This document shows, in pieces, positions 55,675 through 58,710 of a DNA stretch of 64,000 nt. Every line of letters begins with the position of its first letter. Positions within the stretch are counted from its first letter, which is position 1. A program made the translations under genes and the position numbers. The DNA is taken from positions 3,826-67,825 of the forward strand of contig JAFTPS010000013.1 in the NCBI GenBank assembly GCA_017463185.1, given 5' to 3'. The notes under the pieces are model-generated. The model did not search any database. It saw nothing but the letters and a program-made list of their open reading frames with translations, and was not told the origin of the DNA. The stretch is from Alphaproteobacteria bacterium. GTDB taxonomy: Bacteria > Pseudomonadota > Alphaproteobacteria > Rs-D84.

Positions 55675-58600
55675 ATGAAAGCAGATGCACATAAACAGGT
55701 TCAATATCTACGCAATGGGTTGGAACAATTCCTGGCCGATGAAGACAAACATATCGCCAATGGCGCACCGCGCCTGCGTGGCGAACAGTACTTTGCGCTG
55801 GGTGCATTGACCAAGCTGTCTGACACCCAAATTGCGGCCAGTTATTACAAACTGCCCACTGGGTTTGGTAAAACCGTAATGTTTTCATACATGGCCCAGG
55901 CGTATCTGCCCCAGGCACGCGCCAATGGTGACACAAAGAAACTGGTTATATTGGTGCCACGTTTAAATTTGATTAACCAAACCAGCGACAAACTGGACAG
56001 CTTTGCCGGATTTAGTGCATCGGAATTTAGTGGCCGCACCAAGGACACCGATGCAGACATCGTTATTTCAACATACCGTTCATTGGATAAACTGGTAGAA
56101 ACCATTGGGATTGAAAATATCGGCCTAATCTTTGCGGACGAGGCCCACCATGCCACCGGCGACAAGATATCCCAAAACATGATCGATTTAATAAAATCTG
56201 TGCCAACAATTGGATTTACCGCCACCCCATCATACGATACCGATAAATCAGTTGGCAATGTTATGGGAACAGAAATATTTGCAATGACAATCGCCGATGG
56301 CGTACGCAGCGGAATGTTATCGCCGGTCAAAAACACCCTGTATTGTTCCAGCATTGTATACGACCTGGAAAACGCACCTGCAACTAACACCGGCGAATAT
56401 GACTATAACAGTATAACCGGTCAAATTGACACAGACACATTGACCAGTGAAATTGCAGACATATACATCAATGGCGTTGACGAAGACACCGGCCGCCGAT
56501 TTATTGATTGCAAGGCAATGATAAACTGTCCCAACATTGAAATGGCAAAACGCCAGGCCGATGCAATTAACCAACGAGCCGGCCGCATCATCGCACGCGC
56601 ATTTTCATCAGACATGAAAGATTTCGAGATTGAAAAAGCAAAATTCATTGCCGGCGAATACCAGGTTGCATGTCAGGTTAACACCATGACCGAGGGCTTT
56701 GACGACCCCACGGTCAGCCTGTGCATAAACTATCCAACACGTTCCGCCGTTCGTGCCGAACAAGCTGCCGGGCGTGCAATTCGTCTGAATGAATCTGATC
56801 CGCATAAAATCGCATTTGTAATCGATACAATTTTCAGAAAGCACGACAGTGAAACCAGCGACACTGCACTTCAAACCGCACGACACGCAAAACAAGTTTT
56901 GTTCAAGGACATCGCCGGCGGAATGGTATTATTCCCAGAAAATTTCAAGGATGTCATCACACATGGCAAACACCGTCCACACACCCGTGGCAACCACGAA
57001 ACCGTAAAACCATATGAAATCATCACATCAACGGAAACACTGCTGGACCTAAATCGTGTCGATACAGAACGCGCCAAGGAAGAAGAAATACCAGAAAAAA
57101 CCGATGAATGGCTGACTGCTACAGAACTTATGAAATATATTTTGGGTGGCAAGAATAAAATTTTACAAAAACTAATCGCTTTGACCAAAGAGATGCCAGG
57201 CAAGATTGAAACAAGACAATCTGGCAGCAACACCCCTCTGTGTCTGCATATCAGTGCAATTGAAGAATTTAGTCAACTGTCAGGCTTAAAAAGGGTTGGC
57301 AGTATACAGCCAAAGTCGAAAGACTGGTTGACCGCAGACGAACTTCGAAAATATTTCGTAGGTCAATCAGAAAAAATATTAGCAAAACTGCGAGAACTAG
57401 CAGAAAAAATGCCAGACAAAATTCAACAAAGAAAATCCGGAGGTGCAACTCCACTATGTCTACATATTAGCGGAATTGAAGAATTTAGACTTTTATCAGG
57501 CCTTGAAAGAAGAACGGAAATCCAACCAAAGACCAAAGACTGGTTAAACTCAAAAGAGGCAAGCCAATATTTTAAAGCACAACAAATGACCGTTTTGCAA
57601 AAAATGAATGAATTAGCTGAAAAGATGCCAGACAAGATTCAGAAAAGACAATCTGGTTCTCTGACACCACTATGTGTACACATCGGTGCAATCGATGACC
57701 TGGCAAAATATTCGGAATTAGAAAGAAAAGGGAAATTCCCAGCCAAAACAAACGATTGGCTGACAGCAAACGAATTACACATGCACATCAGAGCAAAAGC
57801 CGATAAAATTCTAGAAAAACTCAAAGAATTTGCAAATATGATGCCTGACAAAATCCAACAAAGAGAAATCTCCAACGGCCAGTCTCCTTTATGTCTACAC
57901 ATTAGTGGGTTAGATAAGTTTATACAGCTTTCCGGATTGGAAAAAAGAACCACTATTTCTAAAAAGACAACCGAATGGTTAACTGCTGATGAATTGACCA
58001 ACCATTTTATTGGTGGCGCAGGTAAGATTTTAGGAAAACTACGAGAACTGGCCGCTAAAATGACAAATGAAATTCAAATTATGCAGTCCGGCTCTCGGCG
58101 AGTTCTTTGTCTGCATATTAGTGCTCTGGACAAATTTGCTCAATTATCAAAACTAGAAAGACAAATAAAACTACAAGCAAAGACCAATGACTGGTTAAAT
58201 GCAACAGAGCTAGCCAAATACTTTATAGGTGGCAGAGATAAAATATTAAAAAAACTTGATGAACTAAAAACAATGATGCCAGACAAAATACAAAAAAAAC
58301 AAAACGGATCCCACACGCCCCTATGCCTGCATATCGATGCGCTGGATGAATTTGCACGGCTGTCGGAATTAGAAAAGAGAGTTCCGCAGAAAACAAGCGA
58401 ATGGCTGACTGCAAAAGAATTGACACAATATTTTGTATGCACGCAACCGGCAATAGCAGAAAAACTAGTCGCACTAGCTAAAAAAATGCCAGGTAAAATA
58501 GAAAAAGTACAATCTGGTTCTAAGACCACTCTATGTCTGCACCGAGATGCATTAGATGAATTTGCGCAACTGTCGGGCTTAAAAAGACGTACCGAAGTCA

Positions 58601-58710
58601 CACCAGAAAAGTTCCATGCCGGAACTAAAGTTGTCAAGGCAATGACCCAGATGGCAGAATCCAAGAAACAAACAAAGGATACCATCACCCCCGACAACCA
58701 ATACGAATAA
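55675..58710 (+). CDS. SF2 helicase (ResIII / DEAH-type) fused to seven tandem ~70-aa HTH-like repeats.
   Basis: Motif I LPTGFGKTV, motif II FADEAHHAT, motif III TATPS, motif VI QAAGRAIR. From residue ~470 onward 7 repeats of WLTAxEL..YF.G...KIL.KL.ELA.KMPDKIQ.RQSGS.TPLCLHISAIDEF..LSGLE+R. Confidence 0.7.
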   Translation: MKADAHKQVQYLRNGLEQFLADEDKHIANGAPRLRGEQYFALGALTKLSDTQIAASYYKLPTGFGKTVMFSYMAQAYLPQARANGDTKKLVILVPRLNLINQTSDKLDSFAGFSASEFSGRTKDTDADIVISTYRSLDKLVETIGIENIGLIFADEAHHATGDKISQNMIDLIKSVPTIGFTATPSYDTDKSVGNVMGTEIFAMTIADGVRSGMLSPVKNTLYCSSIVYDLENAPATNTGEYDYNSITGQIDTDTLTSEIADIYINGVDEDTGRRFIDCKAMINCPNIEMAKRQADAINQRAGRIIARAFSSDMKDFEIEKAKFIAGEYQVACQVNTMTEGFDDPTVSLCINYPTRSAVRAEQAAGRAIRLNESDPHKIAFVIDTIFRKHDSETSDTALQTARHAKQVLFKDIAGGMVLFPENFKDVITHGKHRPHTRGNHETVKPYEIITSTETLLDLNRVDTERAKEEEIPEKTDEWLTATELMKYILGGKNKILQKLIALTKEMPGKIETRQSGSNTPLCLHISAIEEFSQLSGLKRVGSIQPKSKDWLTADELRKYFVGQSEKILAKLRELAEKMPDKIQQRKSGGATPLCLHISGIEEFRLLSGLERRTEIQPKTKDWLNSKEASQYFKAQQMTVLQKMNELAEKMPDKIQKRQSGSLTPLCVHIGAIDDLAKYSELERKGKFPAKTNDWLTANELHMHIRAKADKILEKLKEFANMMPDKIQQREISNGQSPLCLHISGLDKFIQLSGLEKRTTISKKTTEWLTADELTNHFIGGAGKILGKLRELAAKMTNEIQIMQSGSRRVLCLHISALDKFAQLSKLERQIKLQAKTNDWLNATELAKYFIGGRDKILKKLDELKTMMPDKIQKKQNGSHTPLCLHIDALDEFARLSELEKRVPQKTSEWLTAKELTQYFVCTQPAIAEKLVALAKKMPGKIEKVQSGSKTTLCLHRDALDEFAQLSGLKRRTEVTPEKFHAGTKVVKAMTQMAESKKQTKDTITPDNQYE

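Follow-up and report, generated by a model that had tools for sequence, protein, structure and literature searches.

The locus described here raises the question of why a DNA motor protein should carry a long chain of small repeated domains at its C terminus. It lies in a stretch of 64,000 nucleotides (nt), called the window below, from contig JAFTPS010000013.1 of an alphaproteobacterium of the order Rs-D84. The gene in question occupies positions 55675 to 58710 and encodes a protein of 1011 amino acids (aa). An original prediction, made from the DNA letters and their translations, had seen in it a superfamily 2 (SF2) helicase followed by seven tandem repeats in an architecture that it did not recognize. 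We consider it moderately probable that the protein is a lineage-specific SF2 translocase or helicase of Candidatus Enterousia, with a polymorphic winged-helix array that targets or tethers the motor to DNA.

The motor core and the repeat unit

The open reading frame (ORF) was found exactly as predicted, is seemingly monocistronic, and divides into the parts listed here.

55675-58710, plus strand: whole gene, SF2 helicase/translocase with a predicted winged-helix repeat array, 1011 aa
55675-56958, plus strand: SF2 motor core, aa 1-428, with an N-terminal helix and with motifs I, II, III, and VI on two RecA-like domains
56959-57102, plus strand: linker and pre-array helix, disordered at aa 429-442 (predicted local distance difference test score, pLDDT, below 50), then a conserved helix at aa 453-470
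57103-57318, plus strand: repeat R1, aa 477-548
57319-57534, plus strand: repeat R2, aa 549-620, the unit modeled singly
57535-57750, plus strand: repeat R3, aa 621-692, the most divergent unit
57751-57969, plus strand: repeat R4, aa 693-765, wing with a one-residue insertion
57970-58185, plus strand: repeat R5, aa 766-837, containing a 49-nt segment (58012-58060) that is the source of an inverted copy downstream
58186-58395, plus strand: repeat R6, aa 838-907
58396-58608, plus strand: repeat R7, aa 908-978, the sole repeat with positional orthologues in relatives bearing different arrays
58609-58707, plus strand: conserved C-terminal tail of 33 aa, aa 979-1011, predicted helical, with the family-wide motif GTKVV.A....K....PD. 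(consensus of 77 homologues)

The core carries the motifs GFGKT (aa 63 to 67), DEAH (aa 155 to 158), TAT (aa 182 to 184), and QAAGRAIR (aa 363 to 370). Twelve residues within them (G65, K66, T67, D155, E156, H158, T182, T184, Q363, G366, R367, and R370) are invariant in alignments of 22 and 77 homologues. Four Pfam models match the protein above their cut-offs, namely, ResIII (E = 4e-22), DEAD (2e-15), SWI2_SNF2 (5e-11), and Helicase_C (2e-5). The features of SF2 membership, a Walker A motif, DExH, motif III, motif VI, and two RecA-like domains, are all present, and the earlier claim of a complete SF2 motif set is thereby confirmed. In Foldseek searches with the full model, the nearest cores were those of RadD, archaeal and eukaryotic XPB, the Type ISP enzyme LlaBIII, Hef, and the EcoR124I HsdR subunit, at identities of 22% or less; Lhr, Mfd, and RecQ/BLM were further neighbors. 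The two RecA-like domains were matched best by RadD and XPB (E = 1e-14 to 1e-13), but these share only 17 to 22% identity with the core, no accessory domain specific to either was identified here, and neither has a repeat array. Sequence matches in the PDB were weak (Hef, XPB, and a Type I R subunit), and in PHROGs the core falls into a broad phage "DNA helicase" family, phrog_16 (2.6e-48). By these comparisons, the core is a generic predicted SF2 DNA translocase or helicase without a close characterized relative. Between the core and the array, T451 and L456 are conserved across the homologue alignments.

The seven tandem units, each of 70 to 73 aa, span aa 477 to 978 (nt 57103 to 58608), in agreement with the repeats of about 70 aa that had been noticed at first. 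In a six-frame scan of the window with a profile built from the units of the query and its homologues, each unit scored between E = 1e-24 and 1e-31, and nothing else in the whole 64 kb matched. The units are 38 to 60% identical in pairwise comparisons, share 11 invariant columns (W4, L5, E9, K24, M32, I36, L47, C48, H50, S61, and L63), and each carry a net charge of +2 to +4. Tandem Repeats Finder did not detect the array in the DNA because the copies are too diverged, and the repeats are visible at the protein level only. Fourteen contigs from several samples encode the same seven-repeat protein, which rules out an assembly artifact as the source of the seven-unit array. The tail that follows it was modeled, with moderate confidence, as a helix at aa 977 to 1003.

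An alignment of 81 diverse units was assembled, and the structure of R2 was predicted. The AlphaFold2 (AF2) model of R2 (mean pLDDT of 85) consists of a strand, a short helix, a 12-residue helix, a β-hairpin, and a C-terminal helix. In the AF2 model of the full-length 1011-aa protein (pLDDT of 85.9 and predicted template modeling score, pTM, of 0.54), all seven units take this same fold, and the pTM value is consistent with flexibly linked domains. Structurally, the unit comes closest to small DNA-binding domains of the Xis/MerR class and not to the winged-helix modules of Lhr. Its neighbors include the P1 ParA N-terminal domain, ParA2, Pukovnik Xis, Tn916 Xis, and the RdfS excisionase, as well as pSK1 Par on centromere DNA, BmrR and other MerR regulators, BldC, TraN, RacA, and a small terminase. 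A viral structure library returned the same class (HTH, Excise, MerR-like, PrtN, and antirepressor entries), all below significance. The predicted unit thus has the excisionase/MerR winged helix-turn-helix (HTH) fold, a β1-α1-α2-β2-β3 arrangement with a wing that is superposable on Xis and MerR.

Sequence libraries gave a different picture of the unit. When the seven window units were searched singly against Pfam, at E values up to 10, only unrelated noise was returned, and NCBIfam, PADLOC, and PHROGs searched with the whole protein gave nothing specific. The PHROGs family phrog_1969, of unknown function, reached 1e-12 only when summed over the repeats, with no single stretch passing. A PADLOC model named "E2" (PDLC00866, 82 positions) matched 48 residues in the region of repeat 6 (aa 869 to 916; E = 3.9e-7), and BrxB matched weakly at aa 862 to 900. 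No single repeat was matched significantly in Pfam, NCBIfam, PHROGs, or PDB sequences, and no known non-DNA-binding domain was among the matches to the repeat. The architecture is therefore undescribed in those four libraries, as the original prediction had suspected, and in GenBank these proteins go by "DEAD/DEAH box helicase family protein" or "hypothetical protein." The repeat is a new, unnamed domain that belongs to the excisionase/MerR-type winged helices by predicted fold and not by sequence family. The initial comparison with an AlpA/MerR-like module was accordingly right about the fold class, as predicted, but not about the sequence family, for which no HTH_17, MerR, or Xis match was obtained.

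Exchange and distribution of the array

Copy number in the array varies from 1 to 8 among close relatives. In about 45 homologues the core is 85 to 96% identical to the query and the tail, in nearly all of them, 76 to 97%, while the best matches to the query units R1 to R6 reach only about 50%. The last repeat, R7, alone keeps positional orthology (60 to 82%). Synonymous divergence (dS) between the window and locus L007 is 0.16 in the core versus 3.07 in the internal array, and for locus L008 the values are 0.15 and 2.07. Locus L005 shows the reverse pattern, with a dS of 0.18 in the core and 0.03 in the internal array. Core and array therefore have separate genealogies, and the array has been swapped by recombination. 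It is swapped as a cassette between the conserved motor on one side and the conserved last repeat and tail on the other. Changes in length leave traces as well; a 95%-identical relative (P0001) has a hybrid unit with the head of R6 and the tail of R7, which marks an in-register deletion and shows in-register unequal crossover.

Most relatives have fairly homogeneous "type A" arrays, with 65 to 76% identity within one protein; the arrays of the window protein, P0007, P0035, and P0040 are heterogeneous (34 to 50%). In 34 homogeneous arrays, units of one array differ at an overall mismatch rate of 0.28, with mismatches concentrated at position 7 (0.77), positions 15 to 19 (0.51 to 0.84), positions 22 and 25 (about 0.5), and positions 42 and 43 (0.78 and 0.72). 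The variable sites fall on the turn, the exposed face of helix 2, and the wing tip (positions 42 and 43), and the linker is variable too. The hydrophobic framework is near-invariant (W3, L4, L9, F13, I20, L24, L27, M31, I35, L46-C47-L48-H49, and F56), and at three positions a basic residue is in the majority (K23, K34, and R38; 57 to 66%). The turn, helix 2, and wing are the surfaces by which winged HTH proteins contact DNA. By a crude Nei-Gojobori estimate, the ratio of nonsynonymous to synonymous divergence (dN/dS) is 0.21 in the framework, 0.45 in the linker, and 0.76 at the hot spots. The dS values were near saturation, and the hot-spot class had been picked for its variability, a circular choice. 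These ratios fit relaxed or mixed selection and are no proof of diversifying selection.

Such a pattern recalls the repeats of transcription activator-like effectors (TALEs), and the original prediction had spoken of a TALE-like logic. Two observations strengthen that idea without proving it, focal variation within homogeneous arrays and cassette exchange independent of the motor; the hot-spot dN/dS is not above 1. Taken furthest, the idea is that each unit would recognize a short stretch of DNA by means of the hypervariable residues in its turn, helix 2, and wing tip, and that a long composite target would be encoded in how many units there are and in what order they stand. A cassette swap would then let strains re-program the SF2 motor, or a Pif1 helicase in trans, for use in conflict or in partner manipulation by an obligate symbiont. 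We regard this extended form as rather doubtful. The array does share with TALE, RipTAL, and Bat proteins tandem repeats on a conserved framework, few hypervariable positions, variable copy number, and recombination. However, TALE repeats are helical hairpins of 33 to 35 aa, unrelated in fold to the 70- to 73-aa winged helix predicted here, and they are near-identical, whereas the units here are 34 to 76% identical within one protein. TALEs also have no ATPase, while the Enterousia protein has a fused motor and no secretion context. With about 11 variable positions over two elements, in place of a variable di-residue that specifies one base, the array is not a TALE array and resembles one in logic only.

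The homologues retrieved by a search number 192 proteins; almost all are unnamed and metagenomic, and their lengths step by about 72 aa. In a scan of one genome per species, 41 loci were found in gut and rumen metagenome-assembled genomes (MAGs) labeled Candidatus Enterousia, "Alphaproteobacteria bacterium," or "uncultured proteobacterium"; the exceptions were one MAG labeled Muribaculaceae and one distant, repeat-less match in Kerfeldbacteria. Within one lineage, whose members have roughly 900 genes, about 38 species-level genomes retain the gene. Enterousia belongs to the order Rs-D84, has genomes of less than 1 Mb from which most biosynthetic pathways are absent, and has been proposed to be an obligate symbiont or parasite (PMC12306168). 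In some of these sub-1-Mb genomes, two helicase-array paralogues coexist that differ in both array and neighborhood (loci L015 and L029 in MAG JAZROL; L008 and L025 in MAG JAFXFG). Against 1.84 billion cluster representatives, the repeat profile matched only 137 clusters (clustered at 50% identity), so the domain is rare. The repeat domain thus appears, in the databases covered, to be confined to uncultured, genome-reduced gut Alphaproteobacteria, and the tail is limited to one bacterial order and not spread across widespread housekeeping helicases. A phage- or plasmid-borne helicase was considered and rejected: none of the 50,697 phage and 72,556 plasmid records matched the repeat region, phage helicases share only about 24% identity with the core, and the chromosomal neighbors include ligA, gyrA, fabI, and the PBP1A gene.

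Neighboring genes were clustered for about 35 loci, and no universally conserved partner gene emerged among them. The recurrent neighbors are a GNAT acetyltransferase, a 270-aa orphan, and a 257-aa orphan. Some subclades show stable synteny, with fabI and an orphan upstream and ligA and PBP1A downstream; in another, gyrA and a MerR-family gene lie upstream. No nuclease, methyltransferase, specificity gene, or known defense gene stands beside the helicase in these neighborhoods. PADLOC-DB 2.0 gave, besides the "E2" match, partial matches to generic helicase models only (REase_I, PbeA, and HamB; E = 2e-9 or weaker), and the partner genes of those systems were not found. The original prediction had suggested a defense or element-maintenance protein of the accessory region. 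This is not borne out by the generic PADLOC matches, by loci lacking a conserved defense, nuclease, or mobile partner, by the housekeeping neighbors, or by the presence of the gene in some 38 species-level genomes, and the narrower view that the gene sits in a defense island was rejected on the same neighborhoods.

The same data bear on the explanation that the protein is a stand-alone anti-phage or anti-plasmid factor, in which the array would recognize invading DNA, the motor would displace proteins or block replication, and array diversity would reflect an arms race. Restriction specificity subunits and receptor-binding proteins typically pair a conserved core with a hypervariable specificity module that recombines, and the present protein has a conserved enzymatic core and a recombining hypervariable module of this sort. 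The weak similarity to Type I restriction motors and PbeA and the occurrence of two paralogues in some genomes would also fit. The resemblance to Type I and Type ISP systems lies in an SF2 double-stranded DNA translocase coupled to a variable specificity module shuffled by recombination, with LlaBIII and EcoR124I HsdR among the structural neighbors. Here, however, there is no nuclease, methyltransferase, or HsdS/HsdM partner, and the repeat array is fused in cis. Nor is the protein an HsdR subunit by its scores, which are 40.5 bits against a cut-off of 284.55 for TIGR00348 and 38 against 550 for the EcoAI-type model. The lack of a nuclease or other effector domain, the absence of a system-level PADLOC match, the lack of a conserved partner or nearby defense genes, and, in several subclades, the stable synteny with fabI, ligA, PBP1A, and gyrA all count against a conflict factor, and we consider it distinctly unlikely.

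The array also occurs apart from the SF2 core. Six stand-alone arrays of 7 to 10 units were confirmed by six-frame search as complete chromosomal genes with no SF2 core nearby; one of them (P0123) lies on a 237-kb contig among lpxI, ribosomal-protein, and parC genes. At three loci in other gut alphaproteobacterial MAGs, the gene order is conserved (L046, 211-4593; L047, 758-4390; and L053, 223-4006): one or two array genes, of 7 to 10 plus 3 to 4 units, stand immediately upstream of a Pif1-type SF1 helicase gene (product of about 425 aa) on the same strand. Repeats are found on very divergent SF2 cores as well (P0210 and P0227). The array thus accompanies helicases of two superfamilies, in cis and apparently in trans, an argument for a nucleic-acid-related role. 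Stand-alone counts from the cluster-representative search are overestimates. What looked like single-repeat small proteins, and one 558-aa "array-only" protein, were rejected as genes or phase variants; they are pieces of fusions split by 100-N scaffold gaps within the array (L050, 7900-8000; L054, 2122-2222; and L055, 2436-2536), at which gene callers split the helicase. Other array-only entries may share this cause. The gapped scaffolds come from several metagenome assemblies, and fragments of this sort inflate the database record of the family.

How the array may act with the motor

In the reading that we favor, each unit of about 72 aa would bind duplex DNA through helix 2 and the β-hairpin wing, and the covalently joined units would follow one another head to tail on it, an arrangement that Xis and BldC reach as free monomers without covalent links. 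How many units there are, and of which type, would set the length and identity of the DNA stretch to which the array tethers or targets the ATP-driven motor, and the motor would then translocate on, unwind, or remodel the DNA beside this anchor. The conserved last repeat and tail would provide a constant function, for example, contact with a partner or self-association. The net charge of the units and the focal variability of helix 2 and the wing are indirect support for duplex-DNA binding by the predicted unit. DNA binding and sequence specificity of the array are inferred; for the biological role, the candidates are genome maintenance, conflict with mobile DNA, and action on a partner cell.

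Several observations weigh against a DNA-tethering array. The seven-unit profile matched no HTH protein among PDB sequences, and in Pfam and PDB sequences no sequence-level tie of the unit to the HTH_17, MerR, or Xis families was found. A search of the 64-kb window for tandem DNA targets turned up short, low-copy repeats only, with no obvious link to the array. The three Pif1-linked arrays are orthologues from one subfamily and amount to a single association. The assemblies behind the copy numbers are short-read metagenomes, and three scaffolds have 100-N gaps in the array. The hot-spot dN/dS is below 1, and relaxed constraint on a surface would look alike. Finally, winged-helix modules can be protein interfaces, as they are in Lhr.

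That last point leads to the main rival, in which the array is a protein scaffold: winged-helix modules would serve self-association or partner recruitment, copy number would set valency, and the core alone would find the substrate. Lhr consists of an Lhr-Core together with a C-terminal domain of five winged-helix modules and a β-barrel, and the five tandem modules nucleate a homotetramer (PMC8053096). Like the present protein, it is an SF2 nucleic-acid motor followed by tandem winged-helix modules in one polypeptide, and it is a distant structural neighbor of the core (Foldseek rank 21). A scaffold would also accord with the pTM of the full-length model, which suggests flexible beads able to engage partners, and the conserved C-terminal helix could be an interaction motif. 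However, the modules of Lhr are not sequence repeats, are fixed in number, and end in a β-barrel, whereas the units here are 1 to 8 sequence repeats that recombine and are polymorphic. No NCBIfam Lhr model or PDB Lhr chain matched the protein, the Foldseek likeness is confined to the core, and no β-barrel is predicted. The unit itself has its best structural neighbors among the Xis/MerR DNA-binding domains and not among Lhr modules, its net charge is positive, its variation sits exactly where winged HTH proteins contact DNA, and the array goes with two unrelated helicase superfamilies, which fits a role related to nucleic acids. Set against these points, we judge a pure scaffold to be unlikely.

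Other known systems resemble the protein in part. Xis of lambda, Tn916, and Pukovnik, BldC, pSK1 Par, and RacA are excisionase/MerR-type winged HTH proteins that coat tandem DNA repeats. Snf2-type Chd1, with its SANT-SLIDE domain, likewise joins a motor and a distal DNA-binding anchor in one chain (Foldseek rank 32), but it is eukaryotic, belongs to another HTH class, has a single fixed DNA-binding domain, and acts on nucleosomes. Lhr, Xis and BldC filaments, TALE repeats, and restriction motors each share one aspect with the Enterousia protein, and none has the whole design.

The gene in its surroundings and its wider meaning

Three further features of the window lie next to the helicase gene or between it and its convergent neighbors.

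55580-55642, plus strand: promoter-like region inside the 105-nt divergent intergenic spacer, a consensus match only
58711-58734, no strand assigned: GC-rich hairpin directly after the stop codon, between convergent genes, with a 10-bp stem, 6 GC pairs, and a T-run on the minus strand
58940-58988, minus strand: inverted 49-nt repeat remnant of the R5 helix-2 segment, spanning the 3' end of a GT61 gene and the start of the small ORF 58752-59003

The spacer contains TTGACA-17-AATAAT (11 of 12 consensus matches, on both strands) and ATGAAA-16-TATAAT with an extended TG. A perfect palindrome, TTGACAA-N11-TTGTCAA, at 55580 to 55604 places symmetric -35-like hexamers on both strands of this divergent promoter spacer and could be an operator. 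The hairpin that follows the gene looks like a terminator.

The original prediction had also pointed to a weak copy of the repeat in the small convergent ORF 58752-59003. The motif is real, and its profile score was reached by none of 2,000 shuffles of the ORF, but it derives from an inverted remnant and is not a copy of the domain. The 49-nt remnant is 78% complementary to its source in R5, with a 25-nt core at 96% identity (E = 1.5e-7), and the peptide match covers about 16 to 21 residues (10 bits when the profile is built from the window alone, 2.7 bits when it is built from the family). The N terminus of the ORF and the 3' end of the GT61 gene overlap. Outside the window, the ORF was observed only in four contigs (L001 to L004) that carry an identical helicase. 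On this restricted occurrence and its origin in the inverted remnant, a functional paralogue was rejected, and the repeat-like segment is a recombination remnant.

In the window, the helicase gene lies downstream of tRNA-Gln and is flanked by orphan genes, GNAT acetyltransferases, and glycosyltransferases. The divergent upstream neighbor (54757-55569, minus strand) is the 270-aa orphan; it has no Pfam match, bears an HExxH-like motif (AHETKHLEN), and may be akin to a metalloprotease. Its homologues adjoin the helicase again at loci L005, L010, and L039. The 257-aa orphan (53319-54092, minus strand), also without a Pfam match, is accompanied by a GNAT (Acetyltransf_3) gene at 54092 to 54673, and at L005 and L007 it lies two to three genes upstream of the helicase. 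Just after tRNA-Gln are two adjacent paralogous orphans (49195-49731 and 49748-50353, plus strand), the first of which weakly matches ART-PolyVal, an ADP-ribosyltransferase family of polyvalent proteins (E = 0.0013, under the family cut-off). A cluster of large envelope and orphan genes occupies 32840 to 43687; its first gene encodes 1098 aa with CarboxypepD_reg and OmpA domains, and the next encode proteins of 632, 296, and 1297 aa without Pfam matches. The GC skew of the window changes sign at about 32 to 38 kb. At the far end, an integrase-like ORF (5613-6620, plus strand) has Arm-DNA-binding and phage-integrase central domains and no catalytic-domain match at E = 1e-5; together with the nearby short tandem repeats (CACTAAC) at 3338 to 3368 and tRNA-Pro at 10060 to 10136, it may be a decayed integrative element.

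A last alternative is that the protein is exported and works as an effector on the DNA in a partner cell. The tail would be an export signal, and the array would target the chromatin or DNA of the partner, as a nucleomodulin does. The predicted obligate symbiosis or parasitism of the lineage (PMC12306168), an extreme C-terminal tail more conserved than the repeats, the hypervariable array, and a region with many orphans, the weak ADP-ribosyltransferase-like pair, and an autotransporter would all suit it. Against it, no secretion system was identified in the window or the loci, the protein has no N-terminal signal peptide, and a tail that serves as an export signal is pure conjecture. We know of no helicase effectors of this exported, DNA-targeting kind, and we hold this explanation to be very improbable.

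We return, then, to a motor that its own array would target or tether to DNA. The substrate specificity of helicases usually comes from one or two fixed accessory domains. Here, a conserved motor carries a length-variable, recombination-exchanged array of small modules with a predicted winged-helix fold, and the analysis defines an unnamed domain family with 137 clusters among 1.84 billion representatives. If the modules were only scaffolds, the protein would be a curiosity, a polymorphic variant of the Lhr theme. If they bind DNA, they would represent a new way of targeting a DNA motor and a new type of modular DNA-binding repeat, built from winged-helix units of about 72 aa and possibly usable as a programmable scaffold; were each unit in addition a reader of its own DNA segment, the array would be a natural, helicase-coupled counterpart of TALE-type programmable binding with a different fold. 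For the organism itself, keeping 3 kb for this one gene when the genome has about 900 genes argues for an important role in a partner-dependent lifestyle.

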